Assembly: GCA_965246885.1 (NCBI GenBank)
Contig: OZ251992.1
Coordinates: forward strand, 864,001 to 928,000
Direction of reading: 5' to 3'
DNA from: Abditibacterium sp.
GTDB lineage: Bacteria > Armatimonadota > Abditibacteriia > Abditibacteriales > Abditibacteriaceae
DNA length: 64,000 nt
Position numbers and translations under genes: made by a program. Shown one piece after another: positions 16,274 to 58,957 of this stretch; positions within the stretch are counted from its first letter, which is position 1, and every line of letters starts with the position of its first letter. The notes under the pieces are model-generated. The model had not been told where the DNA came from. It ran no database searches and saw nothing but the letters and a program-made list of their open reading frames with translations.

Positions 16274-16514
16274 GAATAATTAGGGGGCGCGGCAACGCGA
16301 CGGGCTAATTCTCCGGCTGACACACCTAATTGCTCGAAAGAATTAGCTAAATAAAAGGGAAATTAGGTGACCCAATCAAAGAACCAAGCGCCGGAGTCGA
16401 AGAATTAGATGTGTCAGTCGTCCAGAGAGGTGTGTCAGTCGTCGAAAGAGGTGTGTCAGCCGTCGAAAGAGGTGTGTCAGTCGTCGAAAGAGGTGTGTCA
16501 TCTGGAGAATTAGC
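16274..16514. repeat. 21-bp-period array, family A (GAAGAATTAG / GTGTGTCAG)
   Basis: GTGTCA(G) at 16411, 16432, 16453, 16474, 16495; (G/A)A(A/G)GAATTAG-like cores at 16274, 16337, 16358, 16399, 16504. Confidence 0.9.
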
Positions 16515-17622
16515 TGGGTGAGCCTTCCAGTTGGCTCAGTCCCCGCACCATCTGTGCGTCTGCTTCGATGCGCACGACTTCTCCCAACCGCGCGGGTACG
16601 ACGAAGAAGACACTTGTGCCGCGATTCTTTTTGTCGAGCGTCATCGCGCGCCACGCGGCCTCGAAATCGAGGTTGGGAGCGCGGGTGGGCAATCCGGCGC
16701 GCTCGAAAAGGCGGGTCTGGCGGCCTATGAGTTCCTCGCCGTCCGCGCGGGATATGGTGCCGAGCGCGATGCCTAAGCGGGCTTCGACGGTCATGCCGAC
16801 GGCGATGGCTTCGCCGTGCAGCCATGTGCCGCGCCCATCCCCCGCGTGGAGGGCCTCAAGCGCGTGGCCGAAGGTGTGACCGTAATTGAGCGTGGCGCGG
16901 CGCCCGACAGCATCGGACTCGCGCTCGTCTTGGCCAACGACTTCCGCTTTGATTTCGCACGAGCGTTGGATGGCGTAACTGACTGCGTCGGCGTCGAGGG
17001 CGAGCAGGGCGTCGAGGTTATTTTCCAGCCACGCGAAGAAAGCGGCATCGGCGATGACGCCGTATTTGATGACCTCAGCTAGCCCCGCTCCCAATTCGCG
17101 CCGGGGCAAGGTGCGGAGGCAGAGGGGGTCAACGAGGACGCCGACCGGTTGCCAGAAGGCGCCTAAGAGGTTCTTGGCGCGCGGGTGGTTGACGCCGGTT
17201 TTGCCGCCCACACTGGAATCCACCATCGCCAACAGCGTTGTCGGGACTTGCACCCACGACACGCCGCGCATCCACGTCGCCGCCACGAACCCCGCCAAAT
17301 CGCCCGTGACCCCGCCGCCCACCGCCCAGACCGCGCCGCGCCGCCCAAAGCCTGCTTCGGCGAGCGCATCGAACGCGCGCGCGGCGGTGTCGAGCGTTTT
17401 GGCCGATTCGCCCTCGCCCATGTCGAAGCGCACCACCCGTTGCCCGCGCGCCTCCAATCGGGCCGCGAGCGCGTCGGTTATAAGCGGCCCCAGCGTCGCG
17501 TTAGAGATGAGCGCGATTTCTCCGGGGAAAGCCGCGTCGGGCAAACCGTCGAGCGTGCCAAGCGCGCCCGCTTGGATGGTGATGGAATAAGAGCGTTCGC
17601 CCAAAGCAACGGGAATCTTCAT
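16510..17622 (-). CDS. aroB: 3-dehydroquinate synthase
   Basis: GGGVTGDLAGFVAATWMRG, VPTTLLAMVDSSVGGKTGVN and LNYGHTFGHALE. Confidence 0.96.
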   Translation of the reverse strand: MKIPVALGERSYSITIQAGALGTLDGLPDAAFPGEIALISNATLGPLITDALAARLEARGQRVVRFDMGEGESAKTLDTAARAFDALAEAGFGRRGAVWAVGGGVTGDLAGFVAATWMRGVSWVQVPTTLLAMVDSSVGGKTGVNHPRAKNLLGAFWQPVGVLVDPLCLRTLPRRELGAGLAEVIKYGVIADAAFFAWLENNLDALLALDADAVSYAIQRSCEIKAEVVGQDERESDAVGRRATLNYGHTFGHALEALHAGDGRGTWLHGEAIAVGMTVEARLGIALGTISRADGEELIGRQTRLFERAGLPTRAPNLDFEAAWRAMTLDKKNRGTSVFFVVPARLGEVVRIEADAQMVRGLSQLEGSPS

Positions 17623-20379: not shown

Positions 20380-20454
20380 AGATACCTATCTCCCCGCGCG
20401 GAATCCGTATTTCTTTGGAAGAAACCGGTATTTTGCGCGGGGAGATCCGTATTC
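20380..20454. repeat. 21-bp-period array, family B (AAATCCGTATTT-like core)
   Basis: Cores AGATACCTATCT (20380), GAATCCGTATTT (20401), AAACCGGTATTT (20422) and AGATCCGTATTC (20443). Confidence 0.75.
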
Positions 20455-20585: not shown

Positions 20586-22589
20586 ATGAAAAACAACCGA
20601 AGCCAAAGGCGCAGCCACTTTCATGCCTTGCGTTGGCCGCTTTGTGCGGCGATGTCTGTGGGGAGCTTGATGCTAACGCCGCGCATGGGCCACGCGGGTA
20701 GTTGGTCTGTGTCGCTGGATCACAATGGGCAGTCGGATAGTAGCGCGGGCCAAGGCCAGACCAAGGGCCATGTCTGGGTGTGGCAGAACCCCGCCGGTGG
20801 AGAAGATGACAGCTATGAGGGGCATGGCTCTGGGAGTGGCCCACTGGATATGGGCCAAACGCAAACGGGGAGCGTCGCTGGGAACTTCACCCTCGTGCTG
20901 CGCTGGACGCCCTCGGCCAAAGGCGAGAAGATTCCGCCGTTTGTGGGCGTGTGGTTCTGGCAAGAGGCAACGGGCGAGGGTGGGCGGTCGGACTTGGGCG
21001 AGCCAAACGGCTACAATGGGCAGGGGTTGAGGGGCACGCCCGGCAGCGTCACCTTGACCACGCGCGCCGCCGCCCCCGATGGCAAGAGCTACTCGGACGC
21101 AACCCACGCGCAGAAAGCACCCAACGACCCCCACTACACACAGTTCTCCAGCTACTCGGTGACGCCCGTCAGCTTCCTCACCATCTCCACCCAAGGCGCC
21201 TCGCCCACCCACAACAGCGTCACCAAGACCGATGGCTCGTTGTATGTGACGTATGCCATGCCCCCGCTCAGCGCCACCTTACGCGTCACAATGGGCAGGT
21301 ATCCCGACCCAGCGTATGATGGGGGTGAGCAGGGGGACAATGTAACAGCCACAGTAGGCGTGCTTCCCCACTACGCCCTCGACCCGCACCAACTCTGGAT
21401 TAGCTCCGACATCGAACCCAGCTACAAGAAATTCACGGCGCCTTTGCCTCCGGCCCCTAATCCTCTTCCCGACTACTGCTACCGGAAGAACCCCGACGGT
21501 AGCTTCAAGACGGACGGTGCGGGCAGTCGCCAAATGGACATCGGAGCGGGGCGCCCCGTGTTGTGGGCTGACTCCAAGAACGGTCTTTACGCTATCCAGT
21601 GCCAGCGTAATCCCGATGGTTCGGTGGCCGTAGAAAGTGCGGCCAAAATGGATTCTTTCTCAAAGAACTGGTTCGCATGGAATTACTTCACGGCCAACAC
21701 AGTCGGGTTCCCGTCGCGTACTACCTACAAATGGAGTCTCGATGGCTCCTTCGTCGGCCCGGAGTTTCACGACTCTCAGGACAACTCTATTGTAGCCAAT
21801 GGTGGCGACGCTAAAAATATGCATCTCGCTAAAGGCATCAACAGTGGAGGCGTTCTTGTTGGCGGCGAATCACATGTCGAGTTGGGCGGTTCATCGGGAG
21901 CAATTGCTTCAAGCAGCTCTGCAAGAGTCAATGTGGCTGACCCCAACGGCGTCTCATTGGCAAGCTCCTATAACATCAATTGGCACTATCCCTTTGAGCC
22001 GTATCACAAACGGCCCAACATCCACCACTTCACATGGCGCACCGCTTTAAGTCAAGTGGATGACGGAGCCAACTTCAGCCTTGCCAACGGTGCCGCTAAG
22101 TCTCAGCAAAATCCTTATCAAAGGCAGGAAGAATCCTTCGTCCCAGTTGCAAAAGCAGGGATGGATGGTGTAGATCAGGTTTCTGGCTACCTTCCAGCCG
22201 GAAAGGACATTGCCGAAATTCTGACCAAACTGGGTGGCAAGGCTGTTGACTGGTATGTGGAAAAGAACTTCCCTACCAAATCACAGCACTTCACGAACGT
22301 CGCCGAAGCGTGGGCCTACTCGATACAGCATCAGCAGTCCGGCAATAGCGAAGGGGATGATCCCGCGCCCATCGTGGACTTAGTGCCTTCTGATCTTCTT
22401 TCCGATCCAGATGGGTGGATTTACTGTACCCATCAAGTTTTCGAGATCGTCCATACGCGCCGCGAAAGTTGGGACGCCGATGCGTATAACGGTCATGGAT
22501 ATGTCGCCCACAATGAGATCGTCAATGCAGATGAAGCTCTCGGTGTAACCGTCGAAATCCAATTCAAGGAGGTGAGGAAAAAACCATGA
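20586..22589 (+). CDS. Large secreted hypothetical protein
   Basis: Basic N-terminus plus hydrophobic signal-like segment; Gly/Ser/Thr/Asn-rich; no family recognised. Confidence 0.7.
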   Translation: MKNNRSQRRSHFHALRWPLCAAMSVGSLMLTPRMGHAGSWSVSLDHNGQSDSSAGQGQTKGHVWVWQNPAGGEDDSYEGHGSGSGPLDMGQTQTGSVAGNFTLVLRWTPSAKGEKIPPFVGVWFWQEATGEGGRSDLGEPNGYNGQGLRGTPGSVTLTTRAAAPDGKSYSDATHAQKAPNDPHYTQFSSYSVTPVSFLTISTQGASPTHNSVTKTDGSLYVTYAMPPLSATLRVTMGRYPDPAYDGGEQGDNVTATVGVLPHYALDPHQLWISSDIEPSYKKFTAPLPPAPNPLPDYCYRKNPDGSFKTDGAGSRQMDIGAGRPVLWADSKNGLYAIQCQRNPDGSVAVESAAKMDSFSKNWFAWNYFTANTVGFPSRTTYKWSLDGSFVGPEFHDSQDNSIVANGGDAKNMHLAKGINSGGVLVGGESHVELGGSSGAIASSSSARVNVADPNGVSLASSYNINWHYPFEPYHKRPNIHHFTWRTALSQVDDGANFSLANGAAKSQQNPYQRQEESFVPVAKAGMDGVDQVSGYLPAGKDIAEILTKLGGKAVDWYVEKNFPTKSQHFTNVAEAWAYSIQHQQSGNSEGDDPAPIVDLVPSDLLSDPDGWIYCTHQVFEIVHTRRESWDADAYNGHGYVAHNEIVNADEALGVTVEIQFKEVRKKP

Positions 22590-27678: not shown

Positions 27679-27848
27679 GGAAGTGACCCACACCCGGAGC
27701 AAATGTGGCCCCGCCAGCGTGACCAGTTTCCCACAAATGCGAAGGGAACTCTCGCGTTTTTTTTCGGTTAATTCCCGTTCTTTTCGGGGAGCAGTGCAGG
27801 AGACAATAGAGGTGGGCGGTTCGTCGCAGGGTGTCGGCGCGCTTTTGC

Positions 27849-27970
27849 CAGACGTCCGCCGAGCGGTGACAGACGTCCGCCGAGCGGTAACAGACGTCCG
27901 CCGAAGAGGGACAGACGTCTGGGATTGTTCCGCCGCCCTCTGTCACCGAATCCCGCGCCTCTGTCACCGA
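27849..27970. repeat. 21-bp-period array, family C (CAGACGTCCGC)
   Basis: CAGACGTC at 27849, 27870, 27891, 27912; inverted CCTCTGTCACCGA at 27937 and 27958. Confidence 0.88.
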
Positions 27971-28000
27971 GTGGCGCGGGTCTCTTTCCATGCGAGCGAT

Positions 28001-41762: not shown

Positions 41763-41940
41763 GAAGAATTAACTAACTCCCCGGAGAGTTAGCTAATTCT
41801 TCGACTGACAGACCTCTGTCTGCCGAAGAATTATATGCGCCAGTCAAAGAGGAAGGTGATTCTTCCGCCGACACACGTAATTCTTCGGAAGAATTACGTA
41901 GTTCCCTCGAAGAATTAGCCGTCTCTTCGGAAGAATTACC
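41763..41940. repeat. 21-bp-period array, family A
   Basis: GAAGAATTA at 41763, 41825, 41888, 41909, 41930; GGAGAGTTA at 41783; inverted TAATTCTTC; CTGACAGAC/GACACAC half-units. Confidence 0.82.
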
Positions 41941-41951
41941 TCGTTTTTTCC

Positions 41952-42416
41952 ATGCCGCAACGACCTCTGCAATTTGGCGCCATCGCTGGCGTTCTGGAAG
42001 GCCAGACTTTTGCCAATCGCCGCGAAGTTTTCGAGGCGCGCTTGCACCGCTCTCTGCTCGCGGGCATCTCCGGCACCGCGCGCGACGGGAGTGACGCGGT
42101 TATCGTGTCCGGCGGCTACGAAGATGACGACGACCGAGGCGACACGCTCATTTATACCGGCGAGGGCGGGCGCAACCCCCAAACCGGCGAACAAATCGCG
42201 GGGCAAATCCTCGTTAAAGGCAACCTCGCCTTGGAAAGGAGCCGCATCAACGGCCTCCCCGTCCGCGTCATTCGCGGCGCCGCCGCCAAGTCCCGCTTCG
42301 CCCCCCAAGAAGGCTACCGCTACGACGGCCTCTACCGCGTGAGGCGCTCATGGCCCGAAAAGGGCAAGTCGGGCCACATCGTGTGGCGCTTTGAACTGCG
42401 TAAGGAGGACGGGTAG
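41952..42416 (+). CDS. Stand-alone SRA/YDG domain protein
   Basis: AGISG, VIVSGGYEDDDDRGDTLIYTGEGG, GNLAL, PVRVIRG, YRYDGLYRV. Confidence 0.9.
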   Translation: MPQRPLQFGAIAGVLEGQTFANRREVFEARLHRSLLAGISGTARDGSDAVIVSGGYEDDDDRGDTLIYTGEGGRNPQTGEQIAGQILVKGNLALERSRINGLPVRVIRGAAAKSRFAPQEGYRYDGLYRVRRSWPEKGKSGHIVWRFELRKEDG

Positions 42417-42462
42417 AACACAGGCGGCACTCTTATCTTCCGGCTGTGATACTTCATTCGCC

Positions 42463-42657
42463 ATGAAAGAAGCGACATACCCAACGTCAACAACAGACGA
42501 ACAATATCGAGCCGAAGCCGAGCATTGGATGGCCCAAATCCATCTGCTCAACGAGCAGTCGAACCGCGAGTGGACGCGCATCGAACAACTGCGCGCCGAA
42601 TCGCAAGCCAACCTCGCGCGCATTGAAGCCATCGTCGCGCGTTTGGAGAATCGCTGA
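42463..42657 (+). CDS. Small helical protein
   Basis: 64 aa; TGT-GATACT 9 nt before the ATG; TGATG overlap with the next gene. Confidence 0.6.
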   Translation: MKEATYPTSTTDEQYRAEAEHWMAQIHLLNEQSNREWTRIEQLRAESQANLARIEAIVARLENR

Positions 42658-42920
42658 TGTGGAAGCAAATCACAGACATCGGCAAGCAACTCTTCAACTT
42701 CGGCCAACGCATGAACAAAGTGGAGGCAGAGCAAACCCAACTGCGCGAAGACGTGAACCGCATCGAGCGTTCGCTTGAACGCCTATTGCTCGCCGAAGAC
42801 AACAACCGCGAAGTCCGCGACCGGGAACGCCAAATCTGGGAGCGCGACCAGAAGATTCTGATGCTCGAACTGCAACGCGAACTCGACAAGTTCGAGCGCC
42901 GCCTCCCGCCCGCCAGCTAA
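42657..42920 (+). CDS. Small coiled-coil protein
   Basis: 87 aa, MWKQITDIGKQLF...LDKFERRLPPAS, with a heptad pattern. Confidence 0.68.
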   Translation: MWKQITDIGKQLFNFGQRMNKVEAEQTQLREDVNRIERSLERLLLAEDNNREVRDRERQIWERDQKILMLELQRELDKFERRLPPAS

Positions 42921-45983: not shown

Positions 45984-46143
45984 GTCATTCCGACTCTCGC
46001 GCTGTCATTCGATTCTTCCGCGCTGTCATTCCGAGGGGAGCCTTGGCGACCAGAGGAATCTTATTTGAGCCGCTCGTCGGTTACAAACGAGCAGTTGCAA
46101 GTAGATTCCTCTGGTCGCCAAGGCTCCCCTCGGAATGACAGCG
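45984..46143. repeat. Palindromic REP/MITE-like element with 41-bp perfect arms and reiterated left-end units
   Basis: 46021-46061 is the exact reverse complement of 46103-46143; GTCATTC occurs at 45984, 46004 and 46025. Confidence 0.9.
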
Positions 46144-46387: not shown

Positions 46388-47050
46388 CTATTTTCGAGCG
46401 GACAGGCGCTTTAACTCTTCTCGTGTCCAAGGGTTCTTATTAGCGACCATTACACGTTCGGGACGCCGCAAGGTTTCTACTGATCCATAGAACAAAAACA
46501 AGCCAACAAGGGAGAAAAACAAGGAAGCATCTCCCCATCCCCAAACCAGAACAGATTGTTCTGGTTGTTGAGGATTGACAAGGCACTGCGCCTTTGAGCC
46601 GTCAGGATAGTTCTTGAGCCAGTCCCCCTGCTTAAACGTCATAGAAAAAGACGTTAATCGTTCACCGGCATACCGGCGACCATTGACGATGTAGGAGTAG
46701 GATATCCGGTTTTCCGGTGTATAGGTGGGGCTTGTCCATGAGACAACACAAGGAACTTGCTGCCAGTCCTTCGACCGAAGAGTAAATGCGAGGGGTTCAA
46801 ACACGAGGCTTCGTCCAAAGATAAGGATAATGAACAGGAACAACAAGCCACAAAGACGAGCTTTGGTGTTGTGCCTCATCCGTTCTGAGAACGCTCGACG
46901 CTCATCGTTCGAGAGAGCAGCTTCTCGCTGTTGGATTTCGGCTACGAGTTCGTGATAACGCTCTGGCGCACGACGTTCACTCATGCGACTTCGCATAACC
47001 ACAAGTTCGGCCAAAGAACACTCAGCATAATCGGGCGCCTCGTCAATCAT
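46388..47050 (-). CDS. Membrane protein with a DUF3592-like domain
   Basis: TM - WQQVPCVV..YSYIVNGRRY..CLVNPQQPEQSVL - TM; TACAAT 6 nt before ATG 47050. Confidence 0.7.
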   Translation of the reverse strand: MIDEAPDYAECSLAELVVMRSRMSERRAPERYHELVAEIQQREAALSNDERRAFSERMRHNTKARLCGLLFLFIILIFGRSLVFEPLAFTLRSKDWQQVPCVVSWTSPTYTPENRISYSYIVNGRRYAGERLTSFSMTFKQGDWLKNYPDGSKAQCLVNPQQPEQSVLVWGWGDASLFFSLVGLFLFYGSVETLRRPERVMVANKNPWTREELKRLSARK

Positions 47051-47133
47051 ATCCTCATTGTAACGCAAACGCCCGCGCGTGCCGAGGGGCAACTCAGCGC
47101 GCTTTTCACGCTCACGGCGCCGCACACTCCCCG

Positions 47134-47312
47134 CGTTCAACGTCCAACGCGGCGCGTTCAACATTCAATGCGGCGCGTTGAACATCCAACGGCCCGCGCT
47201 GTGCGTCTCCTACGGCTCGTTGAACGTCAAGCGGGCCGCGTTGAACTGCAAATACGGCCCATTTGCAGTTCAACGGGCCGCATTTGCAGAACAGCTTGCA
47301 CCATTTGCAGAA
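47134..47312. repeat. 21-bp-period array, family D (CGTT(C/G)AAC / CATTTGCAG)
   Basis: Nine units starting at 47134, 47155, 47176, 47197, 47218, 47239, 47260, 47281, 47302. Confidence 0.85.
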
Positions 47313-47451
47313 GCTGGCAAACTCCCGCGCGAGGTATTTCAATCAATGGCCGACAGCATCCCACAAAATCCTGAACCGGGAGTCAAGCGCGTGGACGACT
47401 TCTTAGAGACGGTCTGAAAAGGCTCTGACCGATGGCGTAATTCTTCGTTTC

Positions 47452-47610
47452 CTCTCCGTATTTTGGGCGAAGAAATACCTCCTTTCCCCGGCCAAATACG
47501 GATTTCCCCCGGAGGAATCCGTACTTGGCGGCGTCAAATCCGTATTTGGCCAGAAGAAATACGGATTTAACTCGGTCAAATCCGTATTTGACGCGGCTAA
47601 ATATGGATTC
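47452..47610. repeat. 21-bp-period array, family B (12-bp core in either orientation plus 9-bp unique spacer)
   Basis: AAATCCGTATTT- or AAATACGGATTT-like cores at 47452, 47473, 47494, 47515, 47536, 47557, 47578, 47599 (first two degenerate). Confidence 0.9.
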
Positions 47611-47657
47611 CTTTGGGTGCCACGCCCTTATTTGCCGAACTGACGGGCGGGCGGGCC

Positions 47658-47696: not shown

Positions 47697-47966
47697 TCAG
47701 TCGTAAACATCCTTGCGGTCGCCGACTTCCACGACGACAACGACTAATATGCCGTCTTGAACGTCGTAGATGATGCGGTAGTCGCCGACGCGAAGGCGAT
47801 AGAATTGCGTTTTGCCCCGGAGTTTCTTGCCGCCCGATGGACGCGGTTCGAGTTCGAGGGTGTAGATTTTGTCGAAGAGCTTGTTTTGCACTTCTTCCGA
47901 CAAGCGGTTAATCTGGCGCCACGCGGGTGACTCAATTAGCACGCGGTAGGAGTGTGGTTCGTTCAT
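47697..47966 (-). CDS. RelE/ParE family toxin
   Basis: YRVLI..A.RQI..PRPSGGKKLRG..YRLRVGDYRIIY..VGDRKDVY. Confidence 0.9.
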   Translation of the reverse strand: MNEPHSYRVLIESPAWRQINRLSEEVQNKLFDKIYTLELEPRPSGGKKLRGKTQFYRLRVGDYRIIYDVQDGILVVVVVEVGDRKDVYD

Positions 47967-48196
47967 CGCCCCAAAGCCTTGCGCCAATCGTCCAAAGTTT
48001 TGCGTTGCGACGGGTCGCTATTCGCCAAGATGCGCTCGGCTTCGGCGGCGTCCACTTCGTCCTCCAACTCTTCGAGCAACTCCTCGGTCGGCTCTGGGTA
48101 AAGCGCGACGACTTCCTCAAACGGGATACCACGCTCTTTGGCGACATCTGCAAAAACGTTCTGGGCGTAGCGGGAGAGGGTGGCGGTAGGTGTCAT
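47963..48196 (-). CDS. Putative antitoxin, toxin-proximal copy
   Basis: Acidic EELLEELEDEVD..TLDDWRK; ATGA overlap with the toxin. Confidence 0.75.
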   Translation of the reverse strand: MTPTATLSRYAQNVFADVAKERGIPFEEVVALYPEPTEELLEELEDEVDAAEAERILANSDPSQRKTLDDWRKALGR

Positions 48197-48205
48197 CTGT
48201 TGAGT

Positions 48206-48472
48206 TTACTGAGCGAGAAGATGATGGGGTTTCGCGCTCCGGTTGGCGATGTAGGCGCGCAAATCATCGAGCGTGTAGCGTTCGTTCGGGTCATCTTCCA
48301 ACCGCGCGCGGCGTGCGGCGGCGACATCCAATTCGTCTTCCAATTCTTCCAGCGCCTCTTCGGAGAAATCGAGGCAACTCGCCACGACTTCTTCGAGCGA
48401 CACGCCGCGTTCTTTGGCGACGGCGCGGAGCAGACTTTCCACTTCGGGCTTGAGTTCGAGGGGCAAGGTCAT
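48206..48472 (-). CDS. Putative antitoxin, second paralogous copy
   Basis: Shares VAKERG..EEVVA..LEELEDE.D..DP..R.TLDD.R with 47963-48196. Confidence 0.72.
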   Translation of the reverse strand: MTLPLELKPEVESLLRAVAKERGVSLEEVVASCLDFSEEALEELEDELDVAAARRARLEDDPNERYTLDDLRAYIANRSAKPHHLLAQ

Positions 48473-58842: not shown

Positions 58843-58957
58843 GATGTCCGCGACGCCGCTACAGACGTCCGCGACGCCGCTACAGACGTCCGCGACGCCG
58901 CTACAGACGTCCGCGACGCCGCTACAGACGTTCACAGCGCGGTGCGGGACGTCCCTG
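58843..58957. repeat. 21-bp tandem array, family C
   Basis: GACGTCCGCGACGCCGCTACA-type units at 58843, 58864, 58885, 58906, with degenerate units at 58927 and 58948. Confidence 0.92.

Follow-up and report, generated by a model that had tools for sequence, protein, structure and literature searches.

At positions 47452..47619 of the window (the whole stretch of 64,000 nucleotides analysed here) eight copies of a 12-bp quasi-palindromic core are lined up between two genes. The locus raises the question of what such a row is: a miniature repeat-spacer array or a row of recombination or operator sites, as the initial annotation proposed, or a repeat of another kind. The genome analysed comprises 3.56 Mb with 62.5% GC and is 92.7% complete. 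The array and its best conserved part are as follows.

47452..47619, no strand assigned: array of eight 21-bp units (12-bp quasi-palindromic core plus 9 bp), non-coding; the last core ends at 47610
47494..47589, no strand assigned: best conserved stretch of the array, with exact cores at 47494 (R), 47536 (F), 47557 (R) and 47578 (F) and a core with 2 mismatches at 47515

The cores start at 47452, 47473, 47494, 47515, 47536, 47557, 47578 and 47599, which gives a step of exactly 21 bp, and the succession of the two core forms is F,R,R,F,F,R,F,R; both the spacing and the order had been given correctly in the initial annotation, as had the sequences of the seven spacers. A core within 2 mismatches occupies 6 of the 8 phased slots as compared with at most one in 200 shuffles, and the window as a whole contains 14 matches at this tolerance versus 2.77 expected (the largest number in 100 shuffles being 6). 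Four of the eight cores are exact; the others deviate from the consensus by 2 (cores 4 and 8), 3 (core 1) and 4 mismatches (core 2). The first two cores are indeed degenerate, as had been stated, but cores 4 and 8 are also imperfect. The difference between F and R, ascribed earlier to the central 4 bp, is in fact confined to positions 5 and 8. The dinucleotide CG is found in the centre of 6/8 cores, and spacers 4 and 7 are reverse complements of each other at 7/9 positions. On the minus strand core 2 (window 47473-47484) reads as AAGGAGGT, which we take to be Shine-Dalgarno-like, with a start codon missing at the usual distance; the other half of this core is common to an array family containing GGGGAG.

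Contigs derived from the reads of two public runs carry the array unchanged, being identical to the assembly over 47128-47589 (run X1) and 47354-47545 (run X2), and it is therefore no assembly artefact; one of the runs may come from the source sample, and the stretch of the array to which run X2 contributes no contig counts neither for nor against. The main contigs exhibit a single arrangement of the array, although contigs alone cannot show the absence of others. Low-depth contigs display other unit orders as well as, near contig ends, an A>G change at 47552, and these may stem from other organisms or loci. The contigs of run X1 have one extra G after window position 47635 relative to the assembly.

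The array is located in a 650-bp gap between a ParE-family gene and a DUF3592 gene, and its surroundings are formed by the following features.

47697..47987, minus strand: ParE-family toxin gene (PF05016), stop 87 bp from the array; a neighbour only, linkage to the array not implied
47963..48472, minus strand: two small antitoxin-like ORFs, 47963-48196 without a family and 48206-48472 with a weak DUF6290 match below the cut-off
46388..47047, minus strand: DUF3592 membrane protein gene, its start near 47047 inferred from an ortholog aligning from that residue
47126..47312, no strand assigned: second array of period 21 bp within this gap, belonging to another sequence family

The position just downstream of a toxin-antitoxin locus, noted earlier, is accurate (87 bp past the ParE stop on the minus strand), but a link to this locus does not follow from it: none of the 4 sister arrays described below has a toxin-antitoxin-like neighbour according to the gene calls, and a second ParE-like gene has no array of this core. 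Searches with ParE and DUF3592 in 12 genomes of the genus, intended for a comparison of filled and empty sites, found distant matches only (best 54-58% and 35-38% identity). Further along, behind the EF-G gene, the window harbors a 57-bp inverted repeat (46021-46143, 89% complementary) with high summed contig depth, which is probably a dispersed REP- or MITE-like hairpin.

Is the core peculiar to this locus? A search of the genome for the core and its 21-bp phasing, proposed with the initial annotation, shows that it is enriched elsewhere and strictly phased there: five arrays of it are present in this genome, all at 21-bp steps, and a sixth was found in one of the 40 relatives searched. A profile of 78 half-sites from these six arrays demonstrates that both halves of the core follow one and the same profile when read outward from the core centre, and hence the F and R forms are, as judged from this profile, two hybrids of two half-site variants and not flipped cores. 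The spacers had been called unique. In the six arrays, 27 of 33 spacers match another one at ≥7/9 positions, directly or as the reverse complement, versus 7.9 ± 3.0 in shuffles (largest 19, n=2000), a count somewhat inflated by two of the six arrays being near copies of each other. By these matches the spacers are drawn from a small common vocabulary, and to a large extent they behave as variants of one 21-mer, the very outcome that had been named as contrary to a repeat-spacer array. The columns are linked least in mid-spacer (0.017 vs 0.076 four bases from the centre), which fits a monomer centred on the core and equally a free middle between bound sites.

Two arrays of the window are close to the one under study.

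20380..20454, no strand assigned: sister array, its core belonging to the same family; a large gene without a Pfam family lies downstream
41854..41938, no strand assigned: related 21-bp array whose core differs by one base per half; one unit matches the in-frame array of FtsK at 20/21

Three sister arrays are located upstream of paralogous large genes which have diverged to 66-76% identity, and the alignment of one of these arrays with the other two opens a gap of exactly 21 bases, i.e. one whole unit. The genes themselves lie at 20586-22589 of the window and near 134,000 and 2,330,700 of contig C1, each with the array upstream of its start; the window copy matches no Pfam family. The 21-bp array at 41854 stands just ahead of a stand-alone gene with a SAD/SRA domain, and behind this gene stand two small coiled-coil-like ones that match no Pfam family (41952-42920).

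Beyond this core, the period of 21 bp is a property of the whole genome. It contains 225 intergenic arrays of period exactly 21, belonging to many sequence families. Among the TRF rows scoring ≥50, 342 of 734 have the period 21, and 233 of these 342 are intergenic as compared with 5/47 at period 18 and 2/33 at period 24 (with our own gene caller). A lag scan gives 350 segments at lag 21 (223 of them intergenic) versus 2, 6, 3 and 2 segments at lags 19, 20, 22 and 23. The intergenic autocorrelation peaks at 21, 42, 63 and 84 and at the CRISPR period, and nowhere else; an origin of the arrays from heptamers is rejected by the lack of a peak at 7 or 14. The density amounts to 53 arrays of at least four units per Mb. 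The largest family (CAGAC) accounts for 142 arrays with 885 units. Three members of the genome-wide set, besides those listed above, fall within the window.

16395..16519, no strand assigned: other intergenic 21-bp array of the set
27846..27983, no strand assigned: intergenic 21-bp array of the major CAGAC family
58843..58940, no strand assigned: intergenic 21-bp array of the major CAGAC family with four identical units

When arrays are joined by half-units shared in one register, 184 of the 225 intergenic arrays fall together (control 14/225), a figure which is approximate, one subfamily being joined one base off register. The five arrays of the 47452 core remain below the joining threshold; three of them have their maximum where the register predicts it and the half-site of the core is present in mixed arrays, and the link of the core to the superfamily would thus rest on half-sites common to a few mixed arrays. 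Within its own array a unit has a partner at ≥17/21 in direct orientation in 49% of 966 cases and in inverted orientation in 9.6% (control 3.5%). Dyad symmetry over all arrays is weak (best dyad fraction 0.48 vs 0.44). In 800 kb of sampled relatives there are 13 segments at lag 21, most of which look coding or heptamer-like by eye, as compared with 104 in the first Mb here, and none of 26 genomes from the same taxonomic family contains the CAGAC family. Two near-identical 21-bp arrays are situated 4.9 kb apart at C1:668018 and 672879. The genome also contains a CRISPR array of 214 repeats at C1:2529844, with two further repeats near 3124078.

Arrays of other families are also found in frame within long genes, namely those of UvrA, urea carboxylase, FtsK, TatC, CheA, RecG, GMC oxidoreductase and DnaX; an in-gene copy of the 47452 core was not found. 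The in-gene units match distant intergenic units at 21 of 21 positions in urea carboxylase, TatC and CheA, at 20 in FtsK and at 19 in UvrA. The units of RecG, GMC oxidoreductase and DnaX match at 18/21, which is within the background (16-18 in 40 random coding windows). Comparison with orthologs covered four of these proteins. In urea carboxylase 110 residues separate the anchors as against 57-58 in 4/4 orthologs, in RecG 98 as against 72-73 in the 4 of 12 orthologs that could be anchored, and in GMC oxidoreductase 98 as against 79 and 75 in the 2 of 11 anchored. The UvrA loop is replaced rather than lengthened: it has 129 residues versus 110-133 in the 13 of 20 orthologs that were anchored, and the array is present in none of these 13. 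Among the orthologs compared there is no clean empty site; the ancestral loop sequence is partly replaced, and the loops are too diverged to fix the boundaries. One of the 13 anchored orthologs, that of the relative G001 (L077:2760-2846), has in this loop a 21-bp array of its own, rich in A and unrelated.

Two exact cores spaced 21 bp apart form a doublet at 39 places of the genome collection. At least 12 of these are long arrays from four genomes (eight loci in one Spirochaetaceae and four in three Bacteroidota), which have no common neighbour gene; the other places have two or three cores and, among the matches listed, many are plain hairpins. Arrays of this core in another genome include steps of 22 bp. 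Metagenomes yielded one locus with a triple core and viral contigs no doublet, and neither viral contigs, plasmids nor phages gave a match to the array itself. In 400 random Bacteroidota genomes only 1-3 doublets were found in 16 and a long array in none. A control core written backwards has matches in 6 genomes, and the two that were inspected turned out to be heptamer repeats. The spacing controls N8 and N10 gave 0 and 5 matches against 158 for N9, a comparison biased by the choice of the genomes through N9. The recurrence of the core across phyla is thus rare; its similarity may be a result of convergence, and homology is not established by these matches. In the relative G010 (L001:1379-1819) an array of the same core is nested in two pairs of inverted repeats (37 and 27 nt), resembling a small MITE.

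Taken together, the array at 47452 is probably a non-coding, lineage-specific and mostly neutral satellite of quasi-palindromic 21-bp monomers, which are copied and exchanged in register. The period is fixed, arrays change in length by whole units, units are reused between loci and orientations, and the gain took place after the split from the relatives of the genus. The monomer would be a 21-bp quasi-palindrome centred on the core, with its ends near the middle of what had been taken for the spacer. Arrays would become longer or shorter through slippage or unequal exchange, acquire units of other arrays by short in-register copying and gain inverted copies through fold-back template switching. 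They would survive where the harm is small, that is at the 3' ends of genes and in variable protein loops, where 21 bases preserve the frame. The least supported step concerns the fixed length, which probably results from in-register exchange among arrays together with frame tolerance, and to which a protein reading two helical turns may add; slippage and conversion by themselves leave one length across unrelated families unaccounted for. Two further observations count against a neutral satellite: no enzyme or target duplication was found, and the retention of the sister arrays upstream of diverged paralogs would also fit a function.

The main rival to a neutral satellite is that the arrays are kept by selection as a lattice for a dimeric DNA-binding protein (a nucleoid organiser or repressor), which would meet one helix face every two turns and for which the core would be a degenerate operator. 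We consider this unlikely. The period equals two helical turns and is kept without indels, the unit is an AT-armed quasi-palindrome with a free middle, the arrays are spread evenly round the chromosome, three sister arrays stand just upstream of paralogous genes, and such a role was suggested for a constant-size repeat class (PMC8161180). Nevertheless, the period is common to many sequence families that are not related to each other, the major family is missing from 26 relatives, and the arrays are nearer to the 3' ends of genes (median 30 bp) than to their starts (109 bp). Nor is any family of neighbouring genes enriched: among paralog clusters compared all-against-all, none was convincingly overrepresented beside the arrays (best P 0.004, uncorrected, for a 3-member cluster). 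The row of operator sites considered in the initial annotation stands as regards core enrichment and phasing, while the binding of a protein along the row shares the low probability of the lattice. A scan for promoters and terminators gave results at chance level.

A dedicated trans-acting activity could instead copy single 21-nt quasi-palindromic monomers between loci and into arrays in either orientation, which seems to us quite improbable. If it existed, the monomers would be among the smallest self-stacking mobile units known, able to rewrite loops of proteins while keeping the frame; the occurrence of the core among Spirochaetota and Bacteroidota, likewise in arrays of 21 bp, would be a record of the spread of the element, and the missing palindromes (see below) would be spent substrate sites. 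Several candidates for a partner gene were rejected. Two of 18 Uma2 genes are within 500 bp of an array as compared with a 13% background, and the five Y1 transposases, the sole reverse transcriptase and the sole GxxExxY gene are all at least 1.0 kb from the nearest array. The reverse transcriptase in question, the only one found (RVT_1, C1:1313165-1314604), belongs to an operon with large genes and is 3.2 kb from the nearest 21-bp array. Two GIY-YIG matches are both in long frames. DUF559, Nop (PF01798), IS110 (PF02371) and resolvase (PF00239) gave no matches in this 92.7% complete genome, where the PF01798 and PF02371 models may miss Tas and the search for recombinases covered PF00239. The organism is apparently known from metagenomes only, which limits direct tests.

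The array might also work mainly at the RNA level, forming a hairpin at the 3' terminus of the toxin-antitoxin transcript and acting as a REP-like stabiliser or a terminator. Its inverted arms are as follows.

47508-47551 and 47574-47617, no strand assigned: inverted arms of 44 nt, 80% complementary, centred on core 6

Folding predictions give a long hairpin at 47508..47617 on both strands with z of -6.8 (about -7) versus shuffled bases, the ParE stop is only 87 bp away, and the bias of the arrays to 3' ends is genome-wide, with an array in 8 of 94 short convergent gaps versus 7 of 608 other gaps. Yet the fold is no better than that of shuffled or flipped units (P 0.14-0.20). Selection for hairpins at the level of arrays is likewise unsupported, 58% of 62 arrays folding better than their own shuffled mean, and most arrays are direct repeats. 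The Rfam scan gave no family at threshold, the hairpins having three sub-threshold matches of miRNA type. We therefore judge this role decidedly improbable.

Site-specific recombination, either as an exchange at the central dinucleotide of two palindromic sites or as the inversion of single cores, was suggested by the composition of F and R, which correspond exactly to hybrids between two perfect palindromes. In other phyla such palindromes, of the one half-site and of the other, are common core forms, while in this genome they make up 0 of 31 cores versus 7.7 expected (P about 1e-4), and 6/8 cores of the array have CG in the centre. The absence of perfect palindromes is probably due to the avoidance of their hexamers by this genome (observed/expected 0.10 for TCCGGA and 0.47 for TACGTA): once it is allowed for, by our estimate about 2.5 such cores remain expected, and the avoidance accounts for most, perhaps not all, of the deficit. 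Many hexamers are strongly avoided genome-wide, with 13 palindromes at an observed/expected ratio of ≤0.10 and the lowest at 0.005, which suggests exposure to many restriction systems. Several further features disagree with recombination at the core centre. CG is central in only 13/31 cores, column linkage is weakest in the middle of the spacer and not at the core centre, the major family, unlike that of the 47452 core, is rich in perfect palindromes, and no resolvase family was matched. The main contigs, with the reservation made above, have one arrangement. Such an origin is very unlikely, and the invertible cores supposed at first find no support, F and R being read as half-site hybrids.

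It is extremely improbable that the array is a miniature repeat-spacer guide array, TIGR-like or CRISPR-like, which would be cut into small guide RNAs. The 12-nt repeats and 9-nt spacers do match TIGR dimensions as given in the consulted part of PMC12045711, but the spacers are reused, the two repeat forms do not strictly alternate, no core contains both TG and CCA, the genome has no match to the Nop and IS110 families and no effector-like neighbour, and arrays occur in hundreds, some of them within genes. The repeat-spacer interpretation with which the analysis started is largely refuted by these facts.

A translated heptad-repeat peptide (in the KYGF or IRI frame) has scarcely any probability, even though each strand of the array has open frames running across it, one frame gives I-R-I from F as well as from R, and column conservation in the CAGAC family peaks every third base. 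That family has one frame free of stops in 75 of 122 arrays versus 58.5 under a null that ignores tandem copies, yet its intergenic arrays are full of stops, and over 179 intergenic arrays variability has no 3-periodicity (0.438 vs 0.440) and stop-free frames number 3.55 versus 3.47. The IRI frame contains 3 and 4 stops on the two strands of the 47452 array, no frame is open on both strands of all six core arrays, and the TTG start of the 92-residue ORF lies upstream of the G absent from the assembly and so depends on the assembly version. The best ESM Atlas score of this ORF is 0.78, with weak hypothetical look-alikes only, and the 22-bp steps of the core in another genome are at variance with a heptad.

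The closest known class is that of the non-coding tandem repeats of constant size (20-21 nt) described by Subirana and Messeguer (PMC8161180), and the array fits it. These repeats ("satellites") of Bacillus and other bacteria have no known function, are largely species-specific and were remarked to span two helical turns (PMC8161180); the class is also treated in PMC6749651 and PMC8625621, of which parts were consulted. As in that class, there are at least four repeats of one length (here eight units, each of exactly 21 bp), one genome harbors several families that agree in length and differ in sequence, and the arrays are short and non-coding with a conserved short motif per unit, here the half-site profile. 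As regards species specificity the data point both ways: the major family is in 0/26 relatives, but the 47452 core was found in 1/40 relatives and, as long arrays, in four genomes of two other phyla. This recurrence in other phyla is unlike PMC8161180. Other differences are the number of arrays, 184 of ≥84 bp here as compared with 22-29 in their 21-nt-rich Bacillus genomes (counted by a different program, SATFIND/MALIG there versus TRF and our own lag scans here), the structure of the units, which are half-site mosaics round one dyad in both orientations, and the presence of the same units in frame in housekeeping genes, which form a separate class in that paper.

REP/BIME/REPIN sequences with RAYT, as described in the consulted part of PMC3116915, are similar in being short palindromic extragenic repeats which are clustered, lie near 3' ends and are lineage-specific. 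In contrast to the REPIN of that part of the source, the units here do not form a doublet with a variable gap and abut at a fixed period. The REPIN unit is an inverted doublet; here the 9.6% of units given above (control 3.5%) have an inverted partner in their own array and 49% a direct one. The five Y1 transposase genes all lack a flanking 21-bp array (the nearest being 1.0 kb away), and such repeats as do flank them are different ones.

The SDR of Nostoc and the Rickettsia palindromic elements are palindromic elements of 21-27 nt or longer that enter coding regions in frame, mostly as single insertions with empty sites. Here, by comparison, mixed units are arranged in arrays, and the orthologs compared gave no clean empty site.

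TIGR arrays of TIGR-Tas are made of 8-12-nt repeats with 9-nt stretches between them in 5-15 units and give 36-nt guide RNAs, according to the consulted part of PMC12045711. Measured against this description, the array does not alternate between edge and loop repeats but uses a single core as F or R (F,R,R,F,F,R,F,R), 0/8 cores have box D (UG) together with box C (CCA) on one strand, its neighbours are ParE and DUF3592 without a Nop domain, and its spacers are not unique. The same source in part gives about 25-36 nt each for CRISPR repeats and unique spacers, as against 12 + 9 bp and reused spacers here, and the CRISPR array of this genome (214 repeats) is elsewhere. PARCELs, in the consulted part of PMC2996958, share tandem repeats with dyad symmetry, patchy distribution across phyla and shuffling within genomes; they are 25-residue coding repeats in membrane proteins, unlike the non-coding 21-bp array. 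VIPR arrays (5-nt GGYNN units), from the part of their description consulted, do not fit the 21-bp arrays.

The main texts searched contain no report of such arrays in this lineage; supplements, the original description of SDR and the article of Subirana and Messeguer in J Bacteriol (2020) may bear on novelty. The 47452 array is ordinary within the genome-wide set, and the weight of the finding lies with the set. Bacterial repeats of fixed length and free sequence have been published and are as yet unexplained, and this genome is an unusually dense case of them. It places two constraints on any mechanism: the units are half-site mosaics exchanged in register, and identical units have entered the loops of UvrA, urea carboxylase, FtsK, TatC and CheA, which means that the process makes new protein sequence.
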